NCBI GenBank assembly: GCA_036307765.1
Contig: JAXJWX010000091.1
Location: forward strand, 10,472-74,471
Source of the DNA: Paludibacteraceae bacterium
Lineage (GTDB): Bacteria; Bacteroidota; Bacteroidia; Bacteroidales; Paludibacteraceae
Reading direction: 5' to 3'
DNA length: 64,000 nucleotides
This document shows, in pieces, positions 23,235 to 40,674 of this stretch. A model generated the notes under the pieces. It was not told the origin of the DNA. It saw nothing but the letters and a program-made list of their open reading frames with translations, and did not search any database. Made by a program: the position numbers and the translations under genes. Each line of letters begins with the position of its first letter. Position 1 is the stretch's first letter.

Positions 23235-23912
23235 ATGAACCCATATATGACTATGACAACAGACATCAGAGCGGCAATATATGCTCGCGTATCCTCAACA
23301 GGGGAAAGACAATCAACAGAAAGACAAGTGATAGACCTAACAGATTACGCCAACAAGAACACGATGACGATATGTAGAACTTTTGAAGAGCATATATCGG
23401 GAGCGAAGAAGAACCACGAGCGACCAGTTCTCCAAGAGTGTTTGACATATTGTATAGAGGAGAAGGTTGATGTGTTATTGCTCTCGGAGTTGAGCCGCCT
23501 TGGTAGAAATGTAGATGAAGTCCTTGCTAATATCCGCTTCGCAAAGGAGAACCGCTTGAATGTCTATTTTCAAAAAGAAGGTATATCCATCTACGGAACT
23601 GATGGAAAAGAAAATCCTTACCTTACCATTATGATTGCAGTCCTCGGAACCTGCGCCCAAATGGAGCGTGAGAACATACACTATCGCTTGCAGTCAGGCA
23701 GAAAGGTTTATGTTGATAAGAACCTTGCTGCTACTGGTAAGTCAGGTCTTGGGAGAAAGGAAGGTTATCGCAAGCCAGTTGAAACAAAGAAAGAAGAATA
23801 TAAGGAGGCATTAAAACTTTTGCGCGCTGGATATCCAATACGAAAGGTTGCTAAACTAACATCTGTTTCTGAAAGCACCATTAAACGATTAAAGAAGGAG
23901 TTCGCAATATGA
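23235..23912 (+). CDS. Serine recombinase (resolvase/invertase family)
   Basis: 225 aa. AAIYARVSSTGERQSTERQ holds the catalytic Ser region, and there is a C-terminal HTH (IRKVAKLTSVSESTIKRL). Confidence 0.8.
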   Translation: MNPYMTMTTDIRAAIYARVSSTGERQSTERQVIDLTDYANKNTMTICRTFEEHISGAKKNHERPVLQECLTYCIEEKVDVLLLSELSRLGRNVDEVLANIRFAKENRLNVYFQKEGISIYGTDGKENPYLTIMIAVLGTCAQMERENIHYRLQSGRKVYVDKNLAATGKSGLGRKEGYRKPVETKKEEYKEALKLLRAGYPIRKVAKLTSVSESTIKRLKKEFAI

Positions 23913-24239
23913 TAAACATAGAACAAATCAAATGGATATATCAGCACTTCGGTGTTGTGATGGCGCTAAGGTCCGCAGGGTATGATCTACTCGCGGACCT
24001 TGCTTTTATATGTTATTGCATAACGCTGCCTATTCAGTTCTTGTGGATACTTTTGAAAAAGATATTTGGGATATAACGAGTGAAAAACGACATTTTTTTT
24101 GAAAAAAAGTGCATTTTTTCGTCATTTTTTTCGGAGGTTTGTTATTTTTATTGTGTAGGGTTAAGGAATTGGTGGTTGAGATGATAAGCCCAATTCTCAA
24201 AGCCTGCTCATTGTTTTAGAAATTAAAATTATTTTAAAT

Positions 24240-24530
24240 ATGTTTAGTAAAGTAAATCTTGATGAATGCAATCTGTCCATCACGGTGAAGATGGAAGATT
24301 TGAAAGCCCTATTTTTCAAATGGGAAGATGAATGGGCGAAGAAAGTGGCGGAAGCCAATAAATTAAAGGAACAGCAGGAATGGTATAACAGCCGCGAGAC
24401 TGCTAATATTTTTAGGAAGAGTATTTCAACTATCAACAGATGGAAACACTCTGGATTTTTAACAGCCAAAACGATTGGTGGGATGGATTATTATAATAAG
24501 AAGGAAATTGAATTAAAAATGAAAGCGTAG
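24240..24530 (+). CDS. Excisionase-like/MerR-type helix-turn-helix DNA-binding protein
   Basis: 96 aa. YNSRETANIFRKSISTINRWKHSG resembles Bacteroidales excisionase-family HTH proteins. Its stop abuts the integrase start. Confidence 0.55.
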   Translation: MFSKVNLDECNLSITVKMEDLKALFFKWEDEWAKKVAEANKLKEQQEWYNSRETANIFRKSISTINRWKHSGFLTAKTIGGMDYYNKKEIELKMKA

Positions 24531-24531
24531 A

Positions 24532-25866
24532 ATGACTATTAATTTTGAATTATCAAAAAAAGAGGACGCGAACAAGATGCGTCAAATACTGGTAAGAATA
24601 TCGGTATCAAGAACCTTCCGAGTAGGGAGCAAGACTGGATTGTATGTGTCAATGAAAGATTGGGACGAAAAAAACAATTCTGTGAGAAAGATTAGTAAGA
24701 TTGAGCGTGTGGAAAAGCAGCAAGAACTCGCTACACTTCGTGATGAACTTGCAAAACTTGAAAGTCATATTGAACAAGCGATTATTAGCGAACGAGAATT
24801 GGAGAAGATGACGGATAAAAAGGATAGGCAGGAGTGGATAGATTTAGTGATTGAGAGTTTTTACGACCCCAGTGTAAAACTCACAAGAATGAAAAACCTG
24901 ACATTTGACGAGTTTGCAAAGATTTATGTGGAGGTTAGAAGTAAGGAAGAACATTGGAAGCCTGCAAAGAACAACCACATCAACAGAAAGAAACTCTGGG
25001 AACATCCGTCATTTGACAAATTAAGTGCAGTGCAGAGCCAAGTGCATAAGATGAACCCGAAATTACTGATGGACACGATTACAGGGGTGACATTGGACGA
25101 GTATCAACACTTCCTCGTAAGTCAAGGATATAACAACAAAACGATTGAGAACCATATTTCATATTTCAAACAGATTTTGCGATGGGCGTATGAGAAGGGA
25201 TATTTGAAATATGGCAGAGATGTGATGGAACACAAGGTTAAGGACTTAAAGATAGCAAAGCCCACACCATTCAATTATCTAACTTGGGATGAGTTTCTCC
25301 AATTTTACAATTGTGAGTTTGATGAATTGGAAAAAGACTTGGAGTTGGCAAGGGATAGATTTTGTTTCTGCTGCGCGACCTCGTTGCGACATAGTGATTT
25401 GGCGTTGTTAAAGAAATGCCATTTTGATAATCCCGATAACCCAACATCATTTAGTATCGTTAGTAAGAAGACGGATGATGCTCTCACCATCCCCCTAAAT
25501 GAATACAGCAGAAGTCTCTATAAAAAGTATAAGGATAAGGATAGTGATAATGGACTGCTTTTTCCAAAGAAGTCAAATCAGAAGATGAATAAGTGCTTGA
25601 AGAAAATTGCATTGAGGTTGGGGATAACGAGGGAGGTTAGCAAAACAGAGTATTCAGGAGCGGTCAGAAGCGACACCACAACAAGGATATGTGATATTAT
25701 TGCTACACACGCAGCCCGTAGAACTTTTGTAGTGCATTGTGCAGAAGAAGGTTGGTCGGAAGAACTGATTAGAACATACACTGGACACGAGGATTTTAGG
25801 GCAATGAGACCATATTTTGCAATCGGAGATAAGAAAAGGCAAATGTATATGGAAAAACATTTTTAG
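24532..25866 (+). CDS. Tyrosine-type site-specific integrase
   Basis: 444 aa with an N-terminal arm-binding-like region, a HAARRTF (HxxR) motif and TGHEDFRAMRPY containing the catalytic Tyr. Confidence 0.85.
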   Translation: MTINFELSKKEDANKMRQILVRISVSRTFRVGSKTGLYVSMKDWDEKNNSVRKISKIERVEKQQELATLRDELAKLESHIEQAIISERELEKMTDKKDRQEWIDLVIESFYDPSVKLTRMKNLTFDEFAKIYVEVRSKEEHWKPAKNNHINRKKLWEHPSFDKLSAVQSQVHKMNPKLLMDTITGVTLDEYQHFLVSQGYNNKTIENHISYFKQILRWAYEKGYLKYGRDVMEHKVKDLKIAKPTPFNYLTWDEFLQFYNCEFDELEKDLELARDRFCFCCATSLRHSDLALLKKCHFDNPDNPTSFSIVSKKTDDALTIPLNEYSRSLYKKYKDKDSDNGLLFPKKSNQKMNKCLKKIALRLGITREVSKTEYSGAVRSDTTTRICDIIATHAARRTFVVHCAEEGWSEELIRTYTGHEDFRAMRPYFAIGDKKRQMYMEKHF

Positions 25867-25869
25867 ATT

Positions 25870-25901
25870 AAAGGGAACTACAAAGGTGGTTCCCTTTTTT
25901 T
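25870..25901 (+). terminator. Rho-independent terminator after the integrase gene
   Basis: gggaac (25873-25878) pairs with gttccc (25889-25894), followed by a T-run. Confidence 0.6.
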
Positions 25902-26071
25902 GGTGCATTTTTGCCATAAAAAAGTTGCACCGATATGGGTCCGATAGCATAATGCGAGTAGATTGATAAGGTAAATAGCAGGTAATTTTCCTAATATCTC
26001 ATAGCGTATCTGTATGGTTCTCAGTTAGAAACATATAAAATCAGGTTAAGAATATTGGAAAATTATGTGTT

Positions 26072-26415
26072 AATCCCTCTCTCTCCGCCAAAAAGAAAGG
26101 AGTTCCAATAAGGAGCTCCTTTTCTTTTTTGTGAGAAGAACAGGGCCTTCTCACACCCTCGGACGGGGGCTCTTATCTCGACCGAACTGGTCTCGAACGA
26201 TACGCGCAAAAAATTGCGCTAGCGAATCCCTCTCTCTCCGCCAAAAAGAAAGGAGTTCCAAAAGGAGCTCCTTTTCTTTTTTGTGAGAAGAACAGGGCCT
26301 TCTCACACCCACGGACGGGGGCTCTTATCTCGACCGAATTGGTCTCGAACGATACGCGCAAAAAATTGCGCTAACGAATCCCTCTCTCTTCGCTAAAAAG
26401 AAAGGAGTTCCAATT
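26072..26415. repeat. ~152-bp tandem repeat (2 full copies plus 1 partial), each starting with a copy of the tRNA-Ser 3' end
   Basis: tRNA-end copies lie at 26072-26088, 26223-26241 and 26375-26393 (1 mismatch). Each is followed by the hairpin aaaggagttcc...ggagctccttt. Confidence 0.9.
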
Positions 26416-26848
26416 AGCAAAGAAAGACGATTCTTATAATTGCGTTCGTTTTCGTGTAATATATCATCATTCGCCTGATCAATAATGGATTGTATACAAA
26501 CACCATCATTCTCCGTCATCGAAAATGCTACATTCAGTACTTTTTGCATACAATAGGTATATTTCTTTGAATTATGCAAATAAAATTATTCTATTAGCAT
26601 AATTTTAGTAGAATAATAAATGCGAGAATAGAATGAGTGGTGGAAAAAAGACAAAAAAGCAGTTCCGATTTCTAAGCATTTATATCCGATTTTTAAGGCA
26701 GAAGTACAACAAGTAATCCGCTGGGCAATTGACGCTTGCGAAGTTTTATGTCCCATAATATATGCAACATTTGGTGGAAAAGCAATTTGTGTAGTAATTT
26801 TGCAGTCGCAAACGCAATTAAAAACCTCCTGCTCCCGCTGGTCGCGAA

Positions 26849-27200
26849 ATCTAAACTATCTAAACTAACAAATAGGGATATATTACTAACCACGGACGAG
26901 CACGGATTTACACGGAAACGAGGGGTATGATTAACAACAACATAAACAACATAAACAACATAAATCAACAACATATTGCGCCCAAAACAACACATTGGGC
27001 GCTACGCGGGAGATATTACCAACCACCGATGAGCACGGACAGGCACGGAAACGCTGAGCTATAACCGCCTACGCCTGCGGCGAGAGATCTAAACTATCTA
27101 AACTAATAAATAGGGAAACAATGAAGATTAACAAGCTGAACCAAAAATTGAGCGTACCTATTGAGAGGTACACCTTAATATAATAAATAATCTAAACTAA
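26849..27200. repeat. Iteron-like repeat field upstream of the DUF3987-like gene
   Basis: There are two triplets of CACGGA at exact 10-bp spacing (26891/26901/26911 and 27024/27034/27044). atctaaactatctaaactaa occurs at 26849-26868 and 27087-27106, with a half copy at 27190-27200. The 9-bp unit aacataaac is repeated three times. Confidence 0.8.
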
Positions 27201-27211
27201 AACACATTTTT

Positions 27212-28540
27212 ATGATGAATCAATCTAATTTGATTACCGAGAAGCAAGACCTTCTCATCACCCCAAACCTCCAACCTAACCAACTACCAAACCTACTTGA
27301 GCAAGCTGTTGCTGTCGCACCCGTTGGTGAGACACGCGACATGCTGCTGCTCTCCTTACTCACCAATTGCGGCTATGCTCTGCCTGCCATGCGTATGCTC
27401 CACGGTCGCCCTCATCACACCTACAGTCCCGAGCTGCTGACCATGATTGTCGCCCCTGCTGCCTCGGGCAAAGGTATCATGAACTACGGACGCCTGCTCT
27501 TGCAAGCCATTGAGGGAAGCACCCCACGAGATCACGCATCTCGTCGGGGACCCCGCTGCAACCACGGCAAGCAGGTGTATATCCCTGCCAACTCGTCCGC
27601 CTCAGCCCTCATTAAGGTCATGGACGAGTATGACGGACGCGGTATTGTCTTTGCCACGGAGATGGACACCCTCACTCAGACACTCCGTGCCGCCTATGGT
27701 CATTTTGGCGACCTTGTTCGTTGTATCTTCGAGCACGAGACCGTTAGCCAACTCCGCCGCCAAAACAACGAGTTCATCGAGATTCGCAACCCGCGTATTG
27801 CTATGCTCCTCTCTGGTACGCCCAACCAAGTAGCACCATTGCTCCGCAATCGCGAGAATGGACTGATGTCCCGCTTTAGCTGCTATGTAGTCAATAGCCG
27901 TATGGACTTTGATGATCATGTGTGGGACGTAGAGGAAGAGGGCAATACGCCGAGCGAAGCCGTTCTCTATGACCGCCTTGCGACGGAATTGGGCGACCGC
28001 TACTTGTGGATGGAGACGGCAGGACACGAGTGTTATTTCTACCTCACAGACGCGCAACTCAAGACCATCAAACGTATGTTCCGCAGCGAGTATGACACTT
28101 ATAGCCAGGAGTTTGGCGACTTGTTCGATGCTTCACTCAAGCGTATGCCTGTCATTATGAAGCGTATTGGTATGATCTTGACGGGCTTGCGATTGGATAT
28201 GAAGAAGCCATTGCCTGAGCGCGTGGTTTGCTCGGAGGAGGATTTTCAGACAATGCTACTCATTGGTCACAAACTGCTGATGCACGCGGCGATGGTGTTC
28301 CAAATGATGCCCGAGCTGAAAGCCACTCCTGTGGGTGAGATAGGGGGCAATATGTTGCAAAAGCAGTTCTTCCAAATGCTTCCCACGGACTTCACTAAAC
28401 AAGATGCAGTGAAGCAAGCGGAAGTCCTTGGAGTGAGCGTGAAGACAATTGAAGTTTGGTTGCAGAAATATATACAATCATCAAATATAGAACGAGTTAT
28501 GCACGGCAGTTACCGCAAGGCAATATGTAAAACAGCGTAA
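27212..28540 (+). CDS. DUF3987-like P-loop protein (a family typical of Bacteroidales mobile elements)
   Basis: 442 aa with APAASGKG as a Walker-A-like motif. The assignment is from memory of the family, not from a search. Confidence 0.45.
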   Translation: MMNQSNLITEKQDLLITPNLQPNQLPNLLEQAVAVAPVGETRDMLLLSLLTNCGYALPAMRMLHGRPHHTYSPELLTMIVAPAASGKGIMNYGRLLLQAIEGSTPRDHASRRGPRCNHGKQVYIPANSSASALIKVMDEYDGRGIVFATEMDTLTQTLRAAYGHFGDLVRCIFEHETVSQLRRQNNEFIEIRNPRIAMLLSGTPNQVAPLLRNRENGLMSRFSCYVVNSRMDFDDHVWDVEEEGNTPSEAVLYDRLATELGDRYLWMETAGHECYFYLTDAQLKTIKRMFRSEYDTYSQEFGDLFDASLKRMPVIMKRIGMILTGLRLDMKKPLPERVVCSEEDFQTMLLIGHKLLMHAAMVFQMMPELKATPVGEIGGNMLQKQFFQMLPTDFTKQDAVKQAEVLGVSVKTIEVWLQKYIQSSNIERVMHGSYRKAICKTA

Positions 28541-28794
28541 ATAGGATTTATAGGTTTTTCAGGATTTGCAAAACCTATAAAACCTGAAAAACCTAAAAAA
28601 CCTAACTCATAGTTTGTTCCTCTCTCGGTATCCTCTTTGCCTTCTCCTCCCCTTTCAGGGGGAGGCCGGGAGGGGGGCTTTCTCCTTATCTATACTATGA
28701 CATTACTATGTGATTACTATGATATTACTATGTTCTTCAAAGCACTTCATAGTAGAATCATGCCTTTAACCTTTAAACTCTAACCTTTCAAATT

Positions 28795-29205
28795 ATGGCA
28801 GAATACAAAACCATTGCGCCCGTCGATTATGTAACGGGCAAACTCAACAAAAAAGACAAAACAGTCTTTCGTCAAAAATTCGCACGCGACTCCAATGGCG
28901 CGGTCATCCGTCCCATGAAGAAGGAGGTGTTTGTCGTTCAGAACCCACGCGACTGGAAGAAAAAGCCAGCCAAGGGCGCGGAAAAGGTGAAGCAAGACCG
29001 CTGGGCAGAAGCTTGTGCGAAGACCAAAGCTATTTTGGACGACCCTGAACAACGCGCTCTGTGGCAGCAGCGTTGGCAAGCGCAACTCAAAAAGGCAGAA
29101 CCTGATGCGCCGATGGATCCACACATAGGCAAGCGCAAGATTTACATCAAGTTTGACTGCTATGTCCGTTCGAAAATATGGCGTGAGCTGTGCTCCACCC
29201 CGTAA
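28795..29205 (+). CDS. Hypothetical basic protein
   Basis: A 136-aa Lys/Arg-rich ORF followed by a clean terminator. Confidence 0.45.
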   Translation: MAEYKTIAPVDYVTGKLNKKDKTVFRQKFARDSNGAVIRPMKKEVFVVQNPRDWKKKPAKGAEKVKQDRWAEACAKTKAILDDPEQRALWQQRWQAQLKKAEPDAPMDPHIGKRKIYIKFDCYVRSKIWRELCSTP

Positions 29206-29225
29206 GACGACTGCTACTCAGTATG

Positions 29226-29261
29226 AAGAGGATGTGTCTAACCCGACACATCCTCTTTTTA
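29226..29261 (+). terminator. Rho-independent terminator
   Basis: aagaggatgtgtc (29226-29238) pairs with gacacatcctctt (29245-29257), followed by a T-run. Confidence 0.7.
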
Positions 29262-29461
29262 TTGCGAAAATCTATGCAAATGACTTTAATATCTCCGTTA
29301 GCATGTGTACATAATAAAATGGTATGCTTAATAGACGATTTTATTTTCCGCACAAGGTACTCAAAATCTTTGAATTACGCAAATATTTTATTAAATAATT
29401 GTTTCAAAACACAAGTAAAATTTGCTTATTCTTGTTTCAAAACACAGGTATAGCCATTGTA

Positions 29462-30226
29462 TTAGACAAGTTCTTGCAACTCCATAATATCTAATAACGT
29501 GTAGTTGACTCCATCTATATGTGACTGCCAACATTGATGAAAATGACCATAGTACCAATGCCTCAACGGATGATTACCACGCAGCAAATGTGCATAAATA
29601 TCATCCAGCGTTTGGCGTTCTTGGGTAGTATCATTCCATAGTGCCGAATCTTTCAAGCACCATGTAGATAAACCTCGCTTGGTCTGCAATTCGCAGAAGG
29701 AAGGTGCCGTATGCGATACAACTGTATCTATTTTTATACCCTGCTCTACAAGAAAATCCAAAGCCATCGGATTATATATTGGTGCTTCATCCGTCCAATA
29801 TGCTTCGCGTTCGGGACATGCCTCCATCCATTGCAAACGCACACTACGATCAATAGAGATCGCCCCACCTACACAGAGGATATTATGATTGCATGCTTGC
29901 AAAAGGGTATAGTCAGGAACCGTTTGCCAACGCTCGTGTGTAATGCGTTTGTTGTCATTGAAATATGCAGGATTATCGTGGTTGCCTCGCAACATAACAA
30001 TCCAAAGATTATCGGCACAAAGGTAGTGTCCGATTTTCTGGTAGATGTTTTCGTAGTATTCAGGAACTTCAAAACCAAAGCCACAGTCGCCAGCTACAAT
30101 TATCAATGCATCGTGAATACCATACGTAACACGAAGTTTTTCAACAAGTGCAACAAATTCACCATGTATGTCACCACACACAACAATGGATTGTGCATCT
30201 GGGAAGGATAAAATAGGCGCAATCAT
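29462..30226 (-). CDS. PPP-family/calcineurin-like metallophosphoesterase (Ser/Thr phosphatase-like)
   Basis: 254 aa with VVCGDIHGEF (GDxHG), VAGDCGFG (a degenerate GDxxDRG) and RGNHD (GNHE-like). Confidence 0.7.
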   Translation of the reverse strand: MIAPILSFPDAQSIVVCGDIHGEFVALVEKLRVTYGIHDALIIVAGDCGFGFEVPEYYENIYQKIGHYLCADNLWIVMLRGNHDNPAYFNDNKRITHERWQTVPDYTLLQACNHNILCVGGAISIDRSVRLQWMEACPEREAYWTDEAPIYNPMALDFLVEQGIKIDTVVSHTAPSFCELQTKRGLSTWCLKDSALWNDTTQERQTLDDIYAHLLRGNHPLRHWYYGHFHQCWQSHIDGVNYTLLDIMELQELV

Positions 30227-30238
30227 TCTTCAACTTAT

Positions 30239-30799
30239 TTAATGCATATCATCATCACCCACAAAATCTTCATAGGACAATTTTACAAAATCTTTGAATA
30301 GTGTTTTCAGTGATCGATAACGATACTTTCTTTGAAGGTGCAATCCCTTCTTTAAAAGTCCATGCAAAGCGGGAGGAATGGAAGTTAAGTCTAAATGTCC
30401 TTCTTGACGTTTTTTCGACATATATTCTGCCCATTGCCCAGGTTCAAGCATATCCTCTGGCATCGCCCCAATATATGGTAATTCATCCGTAAGTATCTCA
30501 TACAAAATGGCACACAAGGCAAAAACAGAACAAGGAGCATCCCAGGCATGTCCATTGATATATTCTGGAGGATAATAAGGCTCAGCGGTATGAGGAGGAG
30601 GAAAGGATAATACTGATAACTGCTTTAGTTCGATATCCCAATCATCATTCATTTCAATGTATTCAGGACATACCCCTTCAAGAATAGTATCAGCTTCTGG
30701 GCATTTAGATAAATCTTCGGTCAATGCTCCGAAAATCACATAACCAATATACGGTGGCAGTGGTGCCTGTGTTTCAAAAAGAATTTGTAAATTTGTCAT
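30239..30799 (-). CDS. Stand-alone protein-kinase C-lobe-like protein (no N-lobe or catalytic loop)
   Basis: 186 aa. PYYPPEYINGHAWDAPCSVFALCAILYEILTDELPY aligns to the APE-to-alphaF region of Hanks kinases. No GxGxxG, VAIK, HRD or DFG motifs are present. Confidence 0.4.
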   Translation of the reverse strand: MTNLQILFETQAPLPPYIGYVIFGALTEDLSKCPEADTILEGVCPEYIEMNDDWDIELKQLSVLSFPPPHTAEPYYPPEYINGHAWDAPCSVFALCAILYEILTDELPYIGAMPEDMLEPGQWAEYMSKKRQEGHLDLTSIPPALHGLLKKGLHLQRKYRYRSLKTLFKDFVKLSYEDFVGDDDMH

Positions 30800-30832
30800 G
30801 GGGTGGATATGTTTTAAAATGTCAACAATTGA

Positions 30833-31240
30833 TTAAGTATTTTTCTCTAAATAACCTGCAAGTAGGAGAATCGTTAAACCACTCTCAACACCCTCTTTAG
30901 TACTAATTCCATATAATACACAAGCATTAGGGATTAGGTCATTCATCAAGTGCATCATCATATTCGTGCCCTGTGATACGATATCTTCAGAATAGTTACC
31001 ATTGCAGGTGATGTGTAAAATAATTTCTTCGATACCCTCTGTTCCCATCTCGTTTATCAGTTGTGATAGTTTATCGAAGCTTTCTATTGTTAGTGAGGGA
31101 GTCTCTAACTTCGCTGCCTTGATGTAATCCGAAGCGCTTTTAAGATTGGCATAGTCCGCCAAATCCACCGAAAAAATTGGATTGTTTGCATACGCCTCCT
31201 CTGCGAGACGCTCAATAGTAGTAAGATCTGTAATAATCAT
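30833..31240 (-). CDS. Small protein resembling the FtsZ/tubulin C-terminal domain
   Basis: 135 aa. GIEEIILHITCNGNYSEDIV...NACVLYGISTKEGVESGLTILLLAGY follows the pattern of FtsZ GARGVLVNITAG...VVIGTS...LRVTVVATG. This is a by-eye similarity only. Confidence 0.3.
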   Translation of the reverse strand: MIITDLTTIERLAEEAYANNPIFSVDLADYANLKSASDYIKAAKLETPSLTIESFDKLSQLINEMGTEGIEEIILHITCNGNYSEDIVSQGTNMMMHLMNDLIPNACVLYGISTKEGVESGLTILLLAGYLEKNT

Positions 31241-31270
31241 AGTTGTACGATAGGAGTTTATTAAGCTCTG

Positions 31271-31858
31271 TTATTCTGATGCATATGGCAAATCAGCTAT
31301 CCCCTTTATATATTTTGCGGGTATGTAATCTGTTTGCCAAACATCGTTGGTGATTTTGTAGAAAACATATCCATCTGCTGCCATTGCTGCACTGTTGATT
31401 TCGAGTACTTCTGGCATATTCTGGTATCCTCCTAAGAAGTAAGCCTTTCCATAGATTGGAGATAAATGAAGTCTTGTGTGGTTCATCGGTTTTATACCTT
31501 CTTTAAAAATGAGGGGCAAACTGTTCTCTACTATTCCATAATATAGCACATTAGGAGGGGGCATTGGAATTGCGTCACTCTCTATTTTGATAGAGTGTCC
31601 ATATAAGGCGCGCACCTTCGTCTTGTCATCCGAGAAAATAAATCGCCCGTCGTCATCAAACAAGACAAGTGCGCTGATGACACATTCTTTATAGCCAGAT
31701 TCTTTACATAGTACATCAACTGACACCCAACCATATTTATCTGGTAAATTGGAATGTTGAAGCAGATAGGCAAGGCGTTTAGATTGAGCAGGAAATTCTG
31801 GAGTGAAAGCATTAGGTGGTAATTCAGACTCAGGTGAAACAATATTTGGAGGTAACAT
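31271..31858 (-). CDS. KptA/Tpt1-family RNA 2'-phosphotransferase-like protein
   Basis: 195 aa. It aligns with E. coli KptA in four blocks: SKRLAYLLQH, GRFIFS..VRALYGHS, PPNVLYYG and TRLHLS. The first catalytic Arg (LRH) is Gln here. Confidence 0.7.
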   Translation of the reverse strand: MLPPNIVSPESELPPNAFTPEFPAQSKRLAYLLQHSNLPDKYGWVSVDVLCKESGYKECVISALVLFDDDGRFIFSDDKTKVRALYGHSIKIESDAIPMPPPNVLYYGIVENSLPLIFKEGIKPMNHTRLHLSPIYGKAYFLGGYQNMPEVLEINSAAMAADGYVFYKITNDVWQTDYIPAKYIKGIADLPYASE

Positions 31859-31930
31859 AATTAATAAGTATTTGTTTTTTATTTCATCTCGTTTTTAATC
31901 AATTAAGATGTTAAATAGCATAGATAATAG

Positions 31931-32896
31931 CTATAAATTAATTATGAGTATAATTATTCCAACTATAATTGCTAAAATTACTAATACCCCAAAACATCCA
32001 ATATCATTATCGTTGTCATTATTCTGAGTAGGTGGAGGTGAAGGAGGAAGTGGAGTCGATGTGGGATGGCTTTTGACTGGGATTGGAGTATCCCTTTTTT
32101 GAATCATTGACTTTACTTTAGGTGTTAAATTAGGATTTCTCTTCAAAGCCATATAGACAGATATCGCAGAGTCATGAAAACATCTTAACATTACCTCTTC
32201 ACGATATGTTTCTGCAGCTACTTTTACACGAACTTTACATGCAACTTTCTTTTTTTGCAACATATCATCTTCAAAGGGCTTTAACAAATCTTCTATTTTT
32301 TGACGTTCTTCTGCAATTTTCCTCTGTCTTTCTCTTTCTGCTGCTATTCTCTTCTGTGCGGTTTCTTGCGCTGCACGAATTCGTTCCTCTTCGGCTTTTC
32401 TTTTGGCTTCTTGTTCTGCGGGTATGGTTACTGTTTCAAAATAGTGTGATTGAGATTTTGAAATAAATTGCGCATTTCGATAGTACGCGGTATTATCTGA
32501 GAATGGAGGCGTAGATGGGAATTTGAACCATTGGTTCTGTATTAACTGACGCTTTAGATCCAAGTGTTGACGCTTTAGAAGTTCAACATCCTCGTAATTA
32601 TATGGTTTGTCATATAAGTTGCTATCATCTTCATAATCAGACCATGCACGCTGACATTTGCCTTTTTCTAATTTTATGGCATGTTCTAATTGTTCTAACT
32701 TAACTTGATCTGCTTTTCTTTTTTGGTCAAAGGCATCCTTATCACGTAAAACTTGTGCCCGTTGTTGGTGCCCTTGTACAGCTTTCATTTCCGCCAAGTT
32801 CAATTCATCTCTCCAGCAGTCTTTACACAATATTCTCCCATCTGACATTCGATAATACTCATCGAATCTTTGGTGGCATCTTTGACATTGAAGCAT
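31931..32896 (-). CDS. Tail-anchored coiled-coil protein with an N-terminal zinc ribbon
   Basis: 321 aa with CQRC...CKDC at the N-terminus, a long K/E/R/Q-rich helix, a Pro-rich linker, and the C-terminal TM helix GCFGVLVILAIIVGIIILII. Confidence 0.6.
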   Translation of the reverse strand: MLQCQRCHQRFDEYYRMSDGRILCKDCWRDELNLAEMKAVQGHQQRAQVLRDKDAFDQKRKADQVKLEQLEHAIKLEKGKCQRAWSDYEDDSNLYDKPYNYEDVELLKRQHLDLKRQLIQNQWFKFPSTPPFSDNTAYYRNAQFISKSQSHYFETVTIPAEQEAKRKAEEERIRAAQETAQKRIAAERERQRKIAEERQKIEDLLKPFEDDMLQKKKVACKVRVKVAAETYREEVMLRCFHDSAISVYMALKRNPNLTPKVKSMIQKRDTPIPVKSHPTSTPLPPSPPPTQNNDNDNDIGCFGVLVILAIIVGIIILIINL

Positions 32897-32956
32897 AATG
32901 TATAAGTGTTTATTATTGTTCTATTAAAATCGTTATAATTATTACAACTTATAAAA

Positions 32957-33661
32957 TTAAAGCAAGAAAAATTGAATATACATTAAAATAGCCATTATAA
33001 TTCCTAAAACAATTAAAAACCTTATTTCTTTTTTTGATTGTTTTTCTATCTCTTCCATGTCCTTTTGCACTTGCTTTAAGTATTCCACATGTTCTCTATC
33101 TTTTCTTTCTTGTTCTTCTTTCTCTCTAGATTCTTCTGCCTTTTTTCTTTGTCTTTCATGTTCTGCAATTTTTCTCTGTCTTTCTAGCTCTTCCGCTATT
33201 CTCTTCTGCTCGGCTTCTTGCGCTGCACGACGGCGTTCTTCTTCAGCTTTTCTTTGTGCTTCTTGTTTTTTTTGTTTCCATTTTAAAAATTCTGGATCTG
33301 TTGCTTTTTTGAATTCTAGCCATTCTTGATATTCTGGATCAAGAACTTGTCTTGTAGGCTGTGGAAATGGAGGACGAAAAGGTTGTTATTTATCTCTTCT
33401 ATTTTTTTCTTCAGTAGCTTTCCTTAGTGCTTCAAGTTCGTCGGCAGCTCGTTTCTGTTCATCAGCAGCACGTTTTTGCTCACGAAAGGTATTCGCTTGA
33501 TCATCTAGTGATTGTAGGTGGTTATAATATGCGTCCGCCAAATCCTCTTCTTCTCTCCACTTGAATTTCTTTCGACATGAATAGTCATCTCTACAAATTT
33601 CAACATATTCATATTGACGACTCCATGTTCCCTCTATAAATTCTTTTCTAGCCATATTCAA
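32957..33661 (-). pseudogene. Paralog of the coiled-coil tail-anchored gene, interrupted by one in-frame TAA (33386-33388)
   Basis: The 91-aa ORF (33386-33661) continues in the same frame for another 142 codons with no ATG. That extension ends in a K/E-rich helix and the TM tail FLIVLGIIMAILMYIQFFLL. The DNA is similar to 32330-32410. Confidence 0.6.
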
Positions 33662-33783
33662 GTTAATCTTAAAATTATCTTAAATTATTAGGATATCCCA
33701 TCCCTGAGTATCCATTATTTCAAAAAACACTACCTATCATAAATGGAATCGTACTGATTGTCAATAACAGATGTGCTTTTTGA

Positions 33784-34524
33784 TTACTCATTTATACTAA
33801 AAAATGTATTTATTAATATTTTTCTTTTGTCAATATCGTCATTATATATCCATTCGTAGTTTTTAATCGCATCAGAGATACAAAATATAAAAGCAACATC
33901 AACTCCACGATAATTTGCTATTGAGGATAAAGCCGAGGACTCCATATCAATGCACTCGATTCCTTGACATTCTAAATGATGTATTAACATTGGAGTTTCC
34001 ATAAACAACGCCTCTGTAGTATAGCAATTTACCATATCTATTTTATAATTTCTTAATTTATTTTTTACATAATAATTCAAAGTCATTGATGTGGCTACAT
34101 TCAGTATACATTTTCCTATGTAAAACTGAGAAACACCTTCTCCAATAAAAGTATTTTTAAGCAATACAATGTCCCCTATGGCATAGCGACCAAGACTACA
34201 TGCATAACCATAAAATACAAACTCCGTAAATCCCAAATAAATCAAACAATCAAAATCTATCGCTGCTAATGCTGCTCCATTTCTTATAATAGCCAAAAAT
34301 ACTGGATTATTCTTATTATCTAATAAAAGAGAGAATATTTTAAACGATTTAACATCAACGACCAATGTTATATCATAGTCATTAAAATACTTTAAATAAC
34401 TACTATTAAAAAACACATGACATAAACCTGAAAATTGTTTGATGTTCTTTTCAAAACCACGACCTCTAAGATAATTTGTGGGGCATATGATGGGATTGTT
34501 ATTGCTTATTTGTTTTGAATACAT
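33784..34524 (-). CDS. Nucleoside phosphorylase superfamily protein, MTA/SAH (5'-dAdo) nucleosidase-like
   Basis: 246 aa. The DMESSAL and CISDA motifs correspond to the MtnN EMEAAA and ISDxAD blocks. It overlaps the upstream rSAM gene by 19 nt. Confidence 0.6.
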   Translation of the reverse strand: MYSKQISNNNPIICPTNYLRGRGFEKNIKQFSGLCHVFFNSSYLKYFNDYDITLVVDVKSFKIFSLLLDNKNNPVFLAIIRNGAALAAIDFDCLIYLGFTEFVFYGYACSLGRYAIGDIVLLKNTFIGEGVSQFYIGKCILNVATSMTLNYYVKNKLRNYKIDMVNCYTTEALFMETPMLIHHLECQGIECIDMESSALSSIANYRGVDVAFIFCISDAIKNYEWIYNDDIDKRKILINTFFSINE

Positions 34525-35708
34525 AATGGAGATATTTTATCTTTTGTTTGATCAACAATGGCGGCACACCAAAATTGGCACTTATCACACCGAGAACAAT
34601 TTGATTTTATTGCTTTTAAAGATTGTACAATCTTTGTATAAGTTAGACTATCTAGCAGTTCTCGTATGGAGTGATTGGTTAGATTTCCTATGTGCCACTT
34701 CTCTTGATACAATAGGGGACAAGGGGTAACCATTAATTCACTATTGATATATAATTGTCCAATTGCTGCATTACAATTAACTCCTCTAATATTAGCACGT
34801 GTGGTAATGTTCCTTTTCAATATGCTTTCATTAATTTTCTTTTGCACCAATCTTAGTTTATCATGAGTGAATTGTATATGCGAATAAGGTACAACAGGTG
34901 ATACTTCGAATTTAAAGTGCAAATCTTCACATACTATTTTATGTACTTTATCAATATCCTTGTAATTGATATCGTCAATTGTCATTGATACTTGCACATC
35001 AGCCCCTTTTAGCAATTCCAAAGCTTTTAAAGTTCGTCTAAAAGTTCCACAACCTCTTCTATAATCATGAGACTCTTCAATGCCATCTAAACTAATTCTA
35101 TAACAATCTACATATCTTTTTATTTCGGTAATATTAGTTATGTTTATTAATGTAGCATTAGTAAATAATTTCACATAAAACCCATATAATTTGGCTAATT
35201 TTATAATCTCAATAAAATTATTATGTACTATGGGCTCTCCCCCACTTATTTCTAATGATAAGATTCCTATATTGGCTAAATCTTTCAATATTACGTCATA
35301 TTTTTCGAACGGCACAAATTTCGGCTTAATATTATTGAGGTAACAATGCTGGCAATGTAAATTACAAGATGATGTAATAGCGAAATGAACAGATAATAAT
35401 CTAGTGTCTGTATTGTTAATTGAAGGAACAAATGAATGATCTTGGTTGATTATTGACATATTTTTCATAGTTGCAATAATATCAATAACATCTTGTTCTA
35501 TTTCTCTAGGATCAGTTTCATAAAATGTCTCTTGGAATTCTTTTATTATGTCAATAACTTTTGTCTTTCCATCAAGTTTTGACCAAACCTCAAAAAATGT
35601 ATAATTTCCCTCATACACTTCGCCATTATAATCAAGGACAATCAAAGTTCCGTTCGAATTATAATTGCTAATACGGCTCCTTGAATAATATTCGTTTAAC
35701 ATTAGCAC
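34506..35708 (-). CDS. Radical SAM peptide maturase with an N-terminal PqqD-like RRE and a C-terminal SPASM-like domain
   Basis: 400 aa. The N-terminus FFEVWSKLDGKTKVIDIIKEFQETF...VIDIIATMKNMSII is PqqD-like. CNLHCQHC is a CX3CX2C motif and SGGEP is present. C-terminal Cys clusters are CNAAIG..TPCP..CSRCDKCQFWC. Confidence 0.8.
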   Translation of the reverse strand: MLMLNEYYSRSRISNYNSNGTLIVLDYNGEVYEGNYTFFEVWSKLDGKTKVIDIIKEFQETFYETDPREIEQDVIDIIATMKNMSIINQDHSFVPSINNTDTRLLSVHFAITSSCNLHCQHCYLNNIKPKFVPFEKYDVILKDLANIGILSLEISGGEPIVHNNFIEIIKLAKLYGFYVKLFTNATLINITNITEIKRYVDCYRISLDGIEESHDYRRGCGTFRRTLKALELLKGADVQVSMTIDDINYKDIDKVHKIVCEDLHFKFEVSPVVPYSHIQFTHDKLRLVQKKINESILKRNITTRANIRGVNCNAAIGQLYINSELMVTPCPLLYQEKWHIGNLTNHSIRELLDSLTYTKIVQSLKAIKSNCSRCDKCQFWCAAIVDQTKDKISPLCIQNK

Positions 35709-35764
35709 TTTTAATATTGGTTACAAAATCAAATTCTCAAAAACTTTATAGAGTGTAATCATTG

Positions 35765-36586
35765 CTATATCTTAACCCATTCGTTTATTTCTTTTGTTGA
35801 AATATGCCAATCTATGATTTCGCTATCTTGTGGATTACAATATTTGCAAAAGGGGTGTGGTCTATTTAGTTTCTTTAATATATTTCCCATATCCTCTTCT
35901 TGATATATGTCATTATAATCTTTGTCTGTATATTCTAGTGGTAAATTGAAATGTTTGGCCAAATGTATACTATGTGCCGTAATATCACAAGTATATAATT
36001 TTCCTTCAAATAAATTTACACTTGCATTTGCATGAGTACAATGATACCAACTTCTAATACACATTTGCTTTCCACTTATATCCATTTTAAAATTTCGAAA
36101 TTTTTTTATACCAGTATCTATATCTATTTTAACAGTGACATTATTTTTTGTTGCTAATTTATAAATTAAAGTATAATCAAGATTTATCGGATAGTAACTT
36201 ACGATTATATCAATATGAAATTTGGCACATACTTCCCAAAATTTTTCATTCATGTCTGGCAACAATAAGCCATTAGTATGAATTGCGATTTCGTATTGAG
36301 GGAAGTTTAATCTTGCGATTTCCATAAATTCAATAATCTGAGGATGTAACAAAGGCTCGCCCCCCATTAATCTTATACGTCTAATATTCCCTTTGCTTAA
36401 AAAAGCTAATCTCTTAATGTCATTTTGAAAAATTTCTTTAGACATAAAATATTTTTCTGCCAATGGCGCAAAATGACAACAACATGCACAATTTAAATTA
36501 CAATGATTCGTTAGATGTATCTCCAAATAATCTAACGCTACTTTATTTCTATTCTTTTCCAATAAAATATCTAAGATCATGCGCAA
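35765..36586 (-). CDS. Radical SAM protein (small, MoaA/NifB/PqqE-like core)
   Basis: 273 aa with HLTNHCNLNCACC (CX3CX2C), MGGEPLLHP, and the C-terminal pair CKYC. Confidence 0.75.
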   Translation of the reverse strand: MRMILDILLEKNRNKVALDYLEIHLTNHCNLNCACCCHFAPLAEKYFMSKEIFQNDIKRLAFLSKGNIRRIRLMGGEPLLHPQIIEFMEIARLNFPQYEIAIHTNGLLLPDMNEKFWEVCAKFHIDIIVSYYPINLDYTLIYKLATKNNVTVKIDIDTGIKKFRNFKMDISGKQMCIRSWYHCTHANASVNLFEGKLYTCDITAHSIHLAKHFNLPLEYTDKDYNDIYQEEDMGNILKKLNRPHPFCKYCNPQDSEIIDWHISTKEINEWVKI

Positions 36587-36604
36587 AATTATTTTAAAAT
36601 CAAA

Positions 36605-37804
36605 TCAACAGTTCGAGTTTTGTCGGGTATAGTTAAATATTACATGCTGCCATTGATTAGTCTCTGATTTACTAGCTTCAATCATAGTATACCCATTCTC
36701 ACAAAGTTTGTTTATAACATAATTTATTTTTTTCTGAACACTATCAATTGACTTATATAATTGACCTATTGGGCTGTGCGGATGTAATGTACAGGGGAAT
36801 AAATTAATTTGTTGGAAACGAAGTGAGATTAAGTGTTTTAAAGTTTCATCTATATCGTTCTGTTTTTCTGTTGGATACCCAATTATTATATGTGTCGTTA
36901 AATACAAATTATTGTTATACTCTTTTATTTTTTTTATAAATTCAATAAACTCCACAACATTTAAATTTCGATTCATATCTCGAAGAATGTTGCTGCTAAA
37001 TGATTGTATTGGAATTGTTATTTTAAATAGTAAATTTGAATGATTTTTTATAAAATTATAAAATTCATTTCTATAACCTAATATCCACTTTGGATTAATT
37101 TCGAAATCAACACCCTTAATTTGAGTGTACGAACATATTTGTTCTAACAACTTAACAATGGTTAATTGACAGTCTATTCCATAGCCACCTCCGTCATCAG
37201 CGACTAATCTTATGTATGAAAAGTTTTGTTTTAAGGCTTTCTTTAGTTCTTCTATTATTGTACTAATAGCTTTGCTTTTATGGTGACCTATAACTTTTTT
37301 TATGGCACAATATGAACAATTACCATAACAACCCTTTGATATTCTTATTAAAAAGATATCACTCTTAAATATAGTATCATAATAAATATCATTTCCATCT
37401 TGTATATATTTAAGTTGCAGTTTGCAGGGGGGAAAATACATTTCTATGTCTTGCAATGCCTCATTGTTAATCACAACTACATTTTTGCTTAAGTTCAAGT
37501 TGTGCATTCCTATAATAGGAAAACAACCAAACACGAAAACATAATTGTAGTTTTCTTGAAAAAAATATAATTTTCGACAAGAGTCCCAGGACATTTCTTC
37601 AGAAAAAGAACAAGTAAAAAAGAATATTATATTGGCATCATGGGGGTTGTCAACAATTGTATATCCATTTTTTTGTAAATATTTTTTCACCCAAAAAGAA
37701 TCTAGCTCCCTTCTTTTACATGCATTACAACATATATAAATTCGTGCAGGATCCATAAGAAAATAATAGTTAGATTCTTTTTTATTAATAGGAATTATAT
37801 CCAT
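36605..37804 (-). CDS. Radical SAM enzyme with a MiaB/RimO-type (UPF0004) N-terminal methylthiotransferase domain
   Basis: 399 aa. The N-terminal three-Cys pattern IYICCNAC...ANIIFFFTCSF...VFGCFP aligns with MiaB GCQMN...NTC...GC. The core motif is GCYGNCSYC. Confidence 0.7.
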   Translation of the reverse strand: MDIIPINKKESNYYFLMDPARIYICCNACKRRELDSFWVKKYLQKNGYTIVDNPHDANIIFFFTCSFSEEMSWDSCRKLYFFQENYNYVFVFGCFPIIGMHNLNLSKNVVVINNEALQDIEMYFPPCKLQLKYIQDGNDIYYDTIFKSDIFLIRISKGCYGNCSYCAIKKVIGHHKSKAISTIIEELKKALKQNFSYIRLVADDGGGYGIDCQLTIVKLLEQICSYTQIKGVDFEINPKWILGYRNEFYNFIKNHSNLLFKITIPIQSFSSNILRDMNRNLNVVEFIEFIKKIKEYNNNLYLTTHIIIGYPTEKQNDIDETLKHLISLRFQQINLFPCTLHPHSPIGQLYKSIDSVQKKINYVINKLCENGYTMIEASKSETNQWQHVIFNYTRQNSNC

Positions 37805-37853
37805 GAAAAGTAAACAATGATTTGCTATATTCTTATCTCATTTTATGGTAAAC

Positions 37854-37915
37854 TAACATGAGTTCGATATAAAGACCACCTATTTCAGCTGCTGTTTATA
37901 TTCGAACTCATGTTA
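37854..37915 (-). promoter_or_regulatory. 20-bp inverted repeat between the peptide gene and the first rSAM gene (attenuator or processing hairpin)
   Basis: taacatgagttcgatataaa (37854-37873) pairs with tttatattcgaactcatgtta (37895-37915), with one bulge. Confidence 0.5.
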
Positions 37916-37939
37916 ATTAAGTATTACGCATAGACTCAC

Positions 37940-38014
37940 TTATTGACAACACATCATAGATTCTAAAGTTTGTTGTGCAGATTTTTTAATTTCTGGTTTT
38001 TTCCATGTTTTCAT
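37940..38014 (-). CDS. 24-aa candidate precursor peptide MKTWKKPEIKKSAQQTLESMMCCQ
   Basis: My own translation of ATG 38012-38014 to TAA 37940-37942, preceded by aaaggaaatttgt. It is below the ORF-track size cutoff. It has a WKKP leader like PqqA and lies 135 nt upstream of the rSAM genes on the same strand. Confidence 0.55.
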   Translation of the reverse strand: MKTWKKPEIKKSAQQTLESMMCCQ

Positions 38015-38100
38015 ACAAATTTCCTTTCGTTGAAAATAATACAGTTACTAATTTAGATTGCGCCAGTATATTGAAAAGAGCAACTTATAAAAATAGAATG

Positions 38101-38235
38101 TTATCTATTTTTCTCCGCTTGCTCGGCTTCATATTGACATTTAGGAGAACAATAGGTTCTTCGACTTCCTAACCAAATTCTACCTTGTCCTTTTCCAATT
38201 ACAGGATCTCCACACCATGCGCATGTGGCAACCAT
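38101..38235 (-). CDS. 44-aa zinc-ribbon mini-protein (CAWC...CSPKC)
   Basis: My own translation: MVATCAWCGDPVIGKGQGRIWLGSRRTYCSPKCQYEAEQAEKNR. It is below the ORF-track cutoff. Confidence 0.35.
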   Translation of the reverse strand: MVATCAWCGDPVIGKGQGRIWLGSRRTYCSPKCQYEAEQAEKNR

Positions 38236-38386
38236 TCCAGCGTCATTTAATGGCTCTTTTACAAAAAACTCATAATCAAAATTTTAAATATTACGTCGGT
38301 TCTTATACTTTTATTTTATGTTGGCATGTAATCTGAACCGATTTAAGATCACATGCTGTTATACTTACATTTTACTCACCAAAATA

Positions 38387-38647
38387 CTATTCTTTATCAG
38401 GCCAATAGGTTTGCTGAACAATATCAGTTTTTCCACTTGAATCTGATTTAACGGTTCTTCCGTCATCTTCATTAATGATGTAATGTATGTGACTTCCCCC
38501 ATCTCTTTTATCTTCATCTTGTCTCGTAGAGCAATAATCGTTACCACTTTTGAAAGATTGATAACTGGAATCTTCCCACTCTCTTCTATCTTTTGAAGCT
38601 TCGGTTGGAGTAGCGTAATCTTGAATATGATTATGTTTATTACTCAT
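38387..38647 (-). CDS. Hypothetical small hydrophilic protein
   Basis: An 86-aa ORF rich in D/E/K/S, with no recognisable motif. Confidence 0.35.
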   Translation of the reverse strand: MSNKHNHIQDYATPTEASKDRREWEDSSYQSFKSGNDYCSTRQDEDKRDGGSHIHYIINEDDGRTVKSDSSGKTDIVQQTYWPDKE

Positions 38648-38748
38648 AACTAATACTGCCAGTTATATACCGTCGGCTCGTCGGTTTTTAAGATAAACAT
38701 CAATAAAAGTGTACTACTCACACATTGCAGTGTGACATTATTCAGAAA

Positions 38749-38859
38749 TTATCTTTGACGTTCACGCACATTCTGACAGATAGGACAAAGTCCCATTCCA
38801 TTTTGAAGGATTTCGAGTGGCCAAGATTTGCCACAACCTTTGCATGTTCCCATTTCCAT
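38749..38859 (-). CDS. 36-aa zinc-ribbon mini-protein (CKGC...CPIC)
   Basis: My own translation: MEMGTCKGCGKSWPLEILQNGMGLCPICQNVRERQR. Confidence 0.35.
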   Translation of the reverse strand: MEMGTCKGCGKSWPLEILQNGMGLCPICQNVRERQR

Positions 38860-39099
38860 AATTATTAGATTTTATTTCCTACTCTTACAGCTTCGTAGGT
38901 CCTGCTTGGATACAACACAAAAAAGCGGGACTGCACTATTACTGCTCCGCCATCCGAGGTTCTAGCATGACCTTCTATTCCAAAGAAAATTTATGCTAGA
39001 TTAAACGGATGACCAAAAGTAAAGAGCGTTTAAACGCCTTTTATGTCTGTGTCCCTCACCTAAAAATGTTCAAACATCCCCAGCGTGAGATTCACCGTG

Positions 39100-39107
39100 C
39101 AAAGGTA
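39100..39107 (-). promoter_or_regulatory. -7 box (TACCTTTG on the minus strand) at the head of the AT-rich gene train
   Basis: caaaggta lies ~240 nt upstream of the first small ORF. A structured leader lies between them. Confidence 0.4.
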
Positions 39108-39165
39108 CAACAAAATTTTGAATAATCCAAATATTCGCTATATTATTGCAAAAAATATTTTTATC

Positions 39166-39182
39166 GGAGTTTTTGCAACTCC
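39166..39182 (-). terminator. Terminator hairpin after the AAA+ ATPase gene
   Basis: ggagtt/aactcc form a 6-bp stem, followed on the minus strand by an A/U-rich run ending in UUUUUU. Confidence 0.4.
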
Positions 39183-39218
39183 TAAGTGTACATTTAAAAA
39201 TGTTTGACTTCAACCTAT

Positions 39219-40640: not shown

Positions 40641-40666
40641 AACGATATATTGTTTAAAATTCGCTG

Positions 40667-40674
40667 CAAAGGTA
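40667..40674 (-). promoter_or_regulatory. -7 box (TACCTTTG on the minus strand)
   Basis: caaaggta lies 27 nt upstream of ATG 40640. Confidence 0.5.

Follow-up and report, generated by a model that had tools for sequence, protein, structure and literature searches.

The object of this analysis is a train of six genes in a contig of a Paludibacteraceae bacterium (NCBI GenBank assembly GCA_036307765.1, contig JAXJWX010000091.1, positions 10,472 to 74,471); the whole stretch analysed, of 64,000 nucleotides (nt), is called here the window. The six open reading frames (ORFs) follow one another in the same orientation on the minus strand and are separated, in coordinate order, by spacers of 12, 33, 30, 72, and 60 nt. 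Their products, with the evidence on which each identification was based, are the following:

29462-30226, minus strand: calcineurin-like metallophosphoesterase (MPE) of 254 amino acids (aa); Pfam Metallophos, PHROG, and motifs
30239-30799, minus strand: N-lobe-less pseudokinase of 186 aa, comprising the kinase C-lobe helices aE to aI; Pfam, PADLOC, and PDB profile
30833-31240, minus strand: ZCD, a stand-alone FtsZ C-terminal (GTPase-activating) domain of 135 aa; AlphaFold2 (AF2)/Foldseek and profiles
31271-31858, minus strand: KptA/Tpt1-family protein of 195 aa, of a 'degenerate' paralogue line; Pfam PF01885 and alignments
31931-32896, minus strand: tail-anchored, K/E-rich Zn-ribbon protein of 321 aa; sequence and weak Zn-ribbon matches
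32957-33661, minus strand: K/E-rich tail-anchored paralogue of the preceding protein, with an in-frame TAA; translation and the orthologue in locus L008

The GC content of the train is 35-42%, compared with 45-52% in the flanking core genome and 28-30% in a radical-SAM cassette located upstream. An earlier reading made from the letters alone (hereafter, the sequence-only reading) had described six same-strand genes with spacers of 12-72 nt in an accessory, AT-rich tract next to a restriction-modification (R-M) island, and this layout was confirmed. It had also named the products as a KptA/Tpt1-like protein, an FtsZ-C-terminal-like protein of 135 aa, a kinase C-lobe-only protein, a PPP-type phosphatase, and a paralogous pair of K/E-rich tail-anchored proteins, one with a zinc ribbon and the other with an in-frame stop; apart from the class of the phosphatase, the results below bear these calls out. 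The ratio of nonsynonymous to synonymous substitution (dN/dS) of all intact genes of the train was between 0.09 and 0.33, indicating purifying selection.

Structural and profile comparisons identified the protein of 135 aa as an FtsZ C-terminal domain that stands alone and has both T7-loop aspartates. The AF2 model (pLDDT 84.9, pTM 0.79) retrieved only FtsZ among the top 50 Foldseek matches in the PDB (TM score 0.6-0.71, E from 4e-6), and in a viral fold library only weak RusA/YjgF-type matches were obtained and the best TM score belonged to a phage FtsZ. The profile of the 33-member ZCD family matched residues 223-337 of Methanocaldococcus jannaschii FtsZ (E 5e-5) and residues 204-312 of the host's own FtsZ (hhalign probability 83%), and it recovered genuine FtsZ in 233 of 401 Bacteroidales genomes. 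The protein shows the same fold and order of elements as the FtsZ C-terminal domain (end of H7, T7 loop, H8, S7-S10); it begins at the end of helix H7 and, unlike FtsZ, it has neither the GTP-binding domain (Pfam Tubulin, PF00091) nor the C-terminal tail peptide. Its T7-loop-like motif reads S24-V-D26-L-A-D29-Y30, with SVDLAD aligned on NVDFAD of FtsZ; in the 33-sequence alignment the family motif S-V-D-x-x-D-Y sits on the T7 loop, and D26 and D29 are at least 90% conserved. ZCD itself gave no Pfam match, and a genome-wide search with PF12327 (FtsZ_C) at E <= 1 returned the host FtsZ alone, which is also the only PF00091 (Tubulin/FtsZ GTPase) match above cut-off in the genome. Its dN/dS spans the full range of the train, 0.09-0.33.

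An exhaustive profile search returned 41 representative ZCD clusters, nearly all of them stand-alone proteins of 126-139 aa, and members of the family are approximately 20-37% identical to the window protein. Close clusters number 36 among 5.8 billion proteins and are nearly all metagenomic. Of the five GTDB species in which ZCD was detected, four carry the label Paludibacteraceae and the fifth is assigned only to Bacteroidales; one of the 151 sampled genomes of the family Paludibacteraceae has the gene, and it was not found in IMG/VR, the INPHARED phages or the PLSDB plasmids. A literature search found FtsZ end-binders such as MipZ, and no description of a stand-alone FtsZ C-domain protein; to our knowledge, no protein of this kind has been described.

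The 195-aa protein belongs to the KptA/Tpt1 family. Residues 26-177 matched Pfam PF01885 (PTS_2-RNA) at 71.3 bits against a cut-off of 26, Tpt1 structures in the PDB were matched down to 2e-21, and the match is full-length, covering the RNA lobe and the NAD+ lobe as in CthTpt1 (6EDE) and PhoTpt1 (7KW8). In contrast to those enzymes, the window protein falls under all NCBIfam equivalog cut-offs (best 108.9 bits vs. 239), is always linked to the half-FtsZ gene and has changed at its active site. Alignment with CthTpt1 (Clostridium thermocellum Tpt1) and with its own relatives of 77-80% identity, using the published roles of Tpt1 residues (PMC6333775), showed that the catalytic tetrad is Q34-H35-R83-H128 (Q-H-R-H) where these relatives have R-H-R-R, that an NAD+ contact motif reads YYGI for YHGT, and that the Arg-Arg/His arch is replaced by Y146-Q147 (GGYQN where the relatives have GGRHG). 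Most of the residues for NAD+ chemistry are thus lost, and the description of this protein as NAD-utilising, given by the sequence-only reading, is doubtful for the window copy, which is the sole KptA homologue in the genome. Canonical KptA, with the Arg-His-Arg-Arg tetrad and the HGT motif, was found in related loci L002, L004, L007, L012, L014, and L060. The degenerate type recurs in L011, L013, and L015, the last still with the first tetrad Arg; it is kept in at least four genomes, with a within-line dN/dS of 0.22-0.26 that is similar to that of the canonical line. This recurrence under purifying selection argues against random decay. The window KptA may therefore be a pseudoenzyme retained by selection, presumably as a binding partner, a role with which a crippled yet selected protein is consistent, whereas in most relatives the residues predict a catalytically intact NAD+-dependent enzyme.

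The comparison covered 11 distinct related loci whose flanks were long enough, onto which the six train proteins were mapped. In every one of the 11, KptA lies upstream of ZCD on the same strand and within 3.5 kb, mostly 13-34 nt away; in L002, a radical-SAM cassette and Cys-rich ORFs stand between the two genes. With respect to a toxin-antitoxin pair, in which one product neutralises the toxicity of the other, this tight linkage of two genes is all that was seen. No description of a KptA/half-FtsZ pairing was found in the literature, and the strictness of the linkage is, together with the selected pseudoenzymes, the notable result of this work. The conserved core of the related islands is F4-KptA-ZCD, F4 being a protein of 244 aa that is the usual upstream partner of KptA and that is absent from the genome studied here. 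Both F4 and another conserved neighbour, F9 (173-181 aa), were considered as degenerate front halves of FtsZ and rejected, with hhalign probabilities of 1.8 and 0.2%, respectively.

The arrangement nearest to that of the window was found in L060, a metagenome contig, where the order is Zn-ribbon protein, F4, F26, UG26 reverse transcriptase, canonical KptA, ZCD, pseudokinase, and MPE. Five of the six train families occur there together, four of them in the window order, and collinearity with the window extends over the final 2.3 kb, at a DNA identity of 85%; this is the sole partial recurrence of the full order. In several related loci, canonical KptA-ZCD is preceded at a distance of 34 nt by the UG26 reverse transcriptase (L007:8221-9417, L008:6285-7514, and L060:8221-9429; PADLOC RT_UG26, 9.6e-160), which is absent from the window. 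The possibility that this enzyme belongs to a diversity-generating retroelement was rejected, its class being UG26, for which a survey of UG/Abi reverse transcriptases reported no KptA partner and an inconclusive defence prediction (PMC9226505).

Looking up single members of the family by exact match gave the contexts of more distant ZCD genes:

L019: SIR2 gene adjoining ZCD
L027: SIR2, PTP phosphatase, and DUF1232-like genes around ZCD
L020-L023: long Rel enzyme gene just upstream of ZCD; vWA, WG-repeat, and PP2C genes downstream (PP2C in L021-23)
L013: ADP-ribosylglycohydrolase gene directly upstream of ZCD (L013:1126-2007; PF03747, 8.7e-35)
L024: ADP-ribosylglycohydrolase gene approximately 3 kb from ZCD
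L059: AAA ATPase and DUF1232-like genes around ZCD

Varied NAD+/ADP-ribose enzymes and phosphatase classes therefore adjoin the same small protein, and the theme of an NAD-utilising enzyme plus a phosphatase, which the sequence-only reading had seen in the train, recurs near distant ZCD genes in the form of SIR2 with PTP, PP2C, and ADP-ribosylglycohydrolase. Most of these distant loci have no radical-SAM neighbour. Locus L013 also carries the degenerate KptA type.

The pseudokinase was identified by profiles, since its AF2 model reached a pLDDT of only 36. Residues 73-163 correspond to positions 161-254 of the 263 of Pfam Pkinase, under the Pfam cut-off, and the family profile (A5) matched 230 PDB kinase chains, with a best E of 5.5e-5 and an alignment to residues 107-212 of MSK1. 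The matches begin at helix aE, so that the N-lobe, the Gly-rich loop, and the beta3 Lys are lacking, and the HRD and DFG positions read EGV and LSV, respectively. In having only the kinase C-lobe, the protein resembles the KIND domain and other N-lobe-less pseudokinases, which can dock partners and cannot phosphorylate, and it differs from the KIND domain in being bacterial, in its length of 186 aa, and in occurring either stand-alone or fused to a CDC48-type AAA domain. Its best PADLOC match was the PD-T4-6 defence kinase; however, it covers positions 178-271 of 292 and has neither HRD nor DFG, and is not a member of that family. No match (E <= 1e-5) was obtained in the 400 other sampled Bacteroidales species genomes (1/401), and the 186-aa form is present in three other contexts at 77-97% identity. 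In L004, a 518-aa protein (L004:587-2143) joins an N-lobe-less pseudokinase to a CDC48/FtsH-type AAA domain and is followed by MPE and an LRR_5 protein, so that the pair of the window takes here a form with three genes. An assignment of this AAA fusion to IetAS was rejected, since it scored 104 bits where the cut-off is 510 and has no partner protease.

The neighbouring gene encodes a metallophosphoesterase that is probably not of the PPP type named by the sequence-only reading. Pfam Metallophos was matched at 49 bits against a cut-off of 21.5, and the motifs GDIHG, GD, GNHD, and GHFH supply all metal ligands (DxH, GD, GNHD, H, and GHxH), which makes the enzyme probably active. Its second motif, GDCGFG, does not contain the arginine of the PPP-diagnostic GDxVDRG; its best match was phrog_1649, a generic phage metallophosphoesterase family (1e-19), and profile searches of the PDB gave SbcD at 0.008 and PP2A weakly at 0.09-0.2. 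The metal-binding motifs are shared with calcineurin-like phosphoesterases such as lambda phosphatase/NinI, SbcD, and the phosphatase domain of Pnkp, from which MPE differs in being conserved as a pair with the pseudokinase. Homologues of 79-90% identity occur in L060, L004, L015, and L061, and the dN/dS of the gene is 0.09-0.15. The pseudokinase and MPE adjoin ZCD in the window and in L060 only; they lie 7-9 kb away from it in L004 and L015 and are absent from the other ZCD loci, while in L061/L062 they stand alone beside gyrB at 77-79% identity, and neither KptA nor ZCD occurs within 10 kb of them. The two genes are thus a separate two-gene module.

The two K/E-rich proteins are paralogues that share a 107-nt DNA repeat of 85% identity (one copy at 32309-32415), and both end in a hydrophobic tail. 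The 321-aa protein consists of an N-terminal zinc ribbon (CxxC...CxxC, with weak Zn-ribbon domain matches), a K/E-rich coiled coil, a Pro/Ser/Thr linker, and a C-terminal transmembrane helix; its homologues are 72% identical in L060 and 35% in L015, and restricted to the C-terminal part in L007, and its dN/dS is 0.23. The paralogue is broken by a TAA at 33386-33388, where the intact 345-aa orthologue of L008 has GAA, and past this codon the frame runs on to the transmembrane tail. The Zn-ribbon protein was found in four loci and its paralogue in two.

The sequence-only reading had seen in the six genes a likely sensor/effector module, and it named a lack of co-conservation as grounds for giving this up. 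The six are not co-conserved as one block, which refutes that view in part: all of them are together only in the window, and stable pairs recur. KptA and ZCD are linked in every related locus, the pseudokinase and MPE are separable from them, and the tail-anchored proteins come and go. These distributions show that the train is a patchwork of two stable pairs and variable membrane proteins.

The setting of the train is described by the following features:

26419-41791 (no strand): insert of 15.4 kb with the train, the radical-SAM cassette, a DUF3987 gene, and a PDC-S27-type ATPase; comparison with genome G576
39100-39131, minus strand: candidate Bacteroidetes-type promoter consensus (TTTG...TAnnTTTG); pattern scan, consensus match only
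L011:10381-10900 (reference), L011:7234-7702, L014:8114-8581, L015:6861-7162, L004:4060-4179, and L004:9273-9397: copies of a recurrent non-coding element

In the closest relative, G576 (L065), window segments 12000-14793, 26072-26418, and 41792-43421 are contiguous at 93-96% identity, and the window therefore contains two inserts, at 14794-26071 and 26419-41791, both of which are missing from this relative. The first is a tRNA-Ser element with a DpnII-type R-M system and lies beside the train-bearing insert, in agreement with the earlier placement of the train next to an R-M island. No tRNA-Ser att core was found at the right end of the 15.4-kb insert. The train is accessory cargo that this gut member of the Paludibacteraceae acquired horizontally. 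At 26072-26418 the 3' end of tRNA-Ser is repeated in three tandem copies; they are also present in the relative without either insert and therefore predate both insertions. An ORF of 387 codons (40791-41954) spans the junction of the insert; the closest relative has no more of it than the first 55 codons, and it is probably a chimeric or truncated frame.

The surroundings include genes found in defence contexts, as had been suggested. A minus-strand ATPase_2/DUF234 protein at 39219-40640 gave a full-length match to the PADLOC candidate defence family PDC-S27 (1.1e-178), and related islands carry varied radical-SAM/SPASM cassettes, the UG26 reverse transcriptase, RhuM, and the conflict-system domains SMEK, CTD10, and MC6. 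The component models of PADLOC-DB 2.0 gave no named system for the train, in line with the sequence-only reading; they returned partial C-lobe matches for the pseudokinase and none for the other five proteins at E <= 0.001.

Upstream of the train, the minus strand has no full Bacteroidetes-type promoter consensus other than that at 39100-39131, which is also upstream of the radical-SAM cassette. A pattern scan detected no Bacteroidetes -7 box in any spacer of the six genes, and sigma-70 promoter and terminator scans were no better than shuffles. Rfam gave no match in the train or in the intergenic element common to the related islands. This non-coding element, of up to approximately 470 nt, recurs whole or in pieces between the gene cassettes of these islands and could be a shared leader or a substrate for cassette shuffling; a single piece of it is present in the window, at 38828-38907, upstream of the radical-SAM cassette. 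Small Cys-rich ORFs of families F8 and F16 (L004:10842-11048 and L004:7498-7698; 68 and 66 aa) share islands with radical-SAM/SPASM 'C-rich' maturases and may encode precursor peptides; an F8 ORF lies approximately 2 kb upstream of one 'C-rich' peptide-type radical-SAM/SPASM maturase. Directly after the last gene of the train, at 29399-29450, there are two copies of TTGTTTCAAAACACA(A/G)GTA placed 33 nt apart, a repeat that is confined to this genome and was not found in any related locus.

Taken together, these data lead us to favour, with a confidence that falls a little short of an even chance, the interpretation that the train is mosaic conflict-type island cargo, assembled from pieces that are mobile on their own, in which ZCD acts on FtsZ and the KptA-type protein is its regulator, and not a six-gene machine. 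In FtsZ filaments, the T7 loop of the C-terminal domain inserts into the GTP pocket of the neighbouring subunit. ZCD would accordingly be predicted to dock on the exposed nucleotide face of FtsZ, the genome's only tubulin-type GTPase domain. As it presents no fresh surface on which a further subunit could assemble, we propose that it is a chain terminator or a GTPase-activating protein acting in trans, that is, a division brake that would end or destabilise FtsZ filaments. The functional comparison is with the FtsZ end-binders MciZ, SulA, and MipZ; SulA and MciZ use the FtsZ face opposite to the nucleotide face, to which ZCD would bind. The KptA-type partner would regulate ZCD or sense for it. 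The pseudokinase would be a non-catalytic docking scaffold that targets or gates the probably active MPE, and the pair of coiled-coil proteins with tail anchors, of which one has recently been interrupted by a nonsense codon, would be a third piece. The neighbourhood and the mobility of the train suggest that it serves in conflict, be it defence, abortive infection or addiction, and not in metabolism. A possible precedent for a link between ADP-ribosylation and FtsZ is Tre1/Tri1, in which an interbacterial ADP-ribosyltransferase reportedly modifies FtsZ and an ADP-ribosylhydrolase is said to be the immunity protein; by analogy, the ADP-ribosylglycohydrolase upstream of ZCD in L013 could be compared with the latter. 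The two cases differ in that there is no secretion apparatus here and the transferase is of the KptA type, which places ADP-ribose onto phosphate groups.

Several points weigh against this interpretation. ZCD is only about 16% identical to FtsZ, and its binding to the host FtsZ is deduced from its fold and T7 motif; the alignment behind the AF2 model is shallow, one of five models being confident and the other four weaker, and the fold class is common to RusA/YjgF-like proteins. The absence of F4 means that the local KptA-ZCD module may be incomplete, and the absence of a consensus promoter within the train means that it may be merely read through from the radical-SAM cassette. The sample of distant contexts is small (seven distinct loci), and it may include housekeeping genes among the neighbours, for example that of the long Rel enzyme. 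The link to defence rests on the neighbourhood, with the PADLOC models giving no system.

A bolder version, which we regard as unlikely, is that KptA and ZCD form a new two-gene module, an ADP-ribosylation-controlled division brake in defence or addiction that acts in trans on the nucleotide face of FtsZ or of a tubulin homologue of an invader. An NAD+/ADP-ribose enzyme would then switch ZCD, namely KptA here and SIR2 or ADP-ribosylglycohydrolase in the distant relatives. If this were true, proteins that consist of half a domain, as ZCD and the kinase C-lobe do, would represent a general route by which trans-acting poisons or decoys arise from essential machinery.

The train could otherwise consist of accessory genes (regulation, immunity, export) of the radical-SAM peptide cassette, transcribed together with it from the 39.1-kb promoter. 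Train and cassette share a strand, no consensus promoter other than the one ahead of the cassette was found, and radical-SAM/SPASM cassettes and small Cys-rich ORFs flank KptA-ZCD in nearly every related island. The cassettes beside KptA-ZCD vary from locus to locus, however, the GC content of the cassette (28-30%) differs from that of the train, and neither the gyrB-side pseudokinase and MPE nor most of the distant ZCD genes have a radical-SAM neighbour, so that this explanation seems improbable to us.

We give equally little credit to the idea that the train is a decaying remnant of once larger systems and is no longer functional. Decay is visible in the nonsense codon and in the lost catalytic residues of KptA, and pieces known from other loci are missing, namely the AAA domain to which the pseudokinase of L004 is fused, F4, and the UG26 reverse transcriptase. 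Against this stand the low dN/dS of each intact gene, the maintenance of the degenerate KptA in several genomes under selection, and the recurrence of the 186-aa pseudokinase, well conserved, in its three other contexts.

A phage-like pathway of RNA end-healing and repair, in which KptA would remove 2'-phosphates with NAD+ and MPE would open 2',3'-cyclic phosphates, was judged quite improbable. Its appeal is that a phage theme has been described in which KptA or sirtuin is accompanied by 2H, calcineurin-like or Nudix enzymes (PMC9503650). Here too, KptA and SIR2 appear as interchangeable neighbours, SIR2 taking the place of KptA beside distant ZCD genes, and a calcineurin-like enzyme is close by; in addition, KptA matched phrog_5470 and MPE matched phrog_1649, with a further weak match to an RNA-ligase-fused MPE. 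Nevertheless, there was no RNA ligase, 2H, RtcB or Macro among the Pfam/NCBIfam matches of the train or of the related islands, KptA and MPE are not co-conserved, the window KptA has lost tetrad Arg1, Arg4, and the NAD+ contacts, no copy was found in the phage collections, and ZCD and the pseudokinase fall outside the scheme and would be left unexplained.

Finally, a single dedicated conflict system, in which kinase/phosphatase signalling would control an NAD+-consuming KptA effector, agrees with the tight spacing on one strand, the five of six families in L060 with four in collinear order, and the accessory, defence-like context, but is made very improbable by the confinement of the full set to the window, the splitting of the pairs in most loci with one pair found alone, a kinase without catalytic motifs, a KptA without most catalytic and NAD+ contact residues, and a pseudogene among the six.

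For the annotation of such islands, the patchwork found here is a caution that tight same-strand trains can be assemblies of independent two-gene modules. If ZCD acts on FtsZ as proposed, it would be a natural 'half-subunit' inhibitor that exploits the assembly interface of FtsZ itself, by a mechanism distinct from those of SulA, MciZ, MinC, and MipZ, and would provide a simple probe of filament polarity and GTPase activation. The locus also shows that pseudoenzymes, here a dead KptA and a kinase C-lobe, are kept under selection in mobile islands. The purpose of bacterial Tpt1/KptA enzymes has been a long-standing conundrum (PMC6333775), and the strict linkage of KptA to ZCD is a clue to it.

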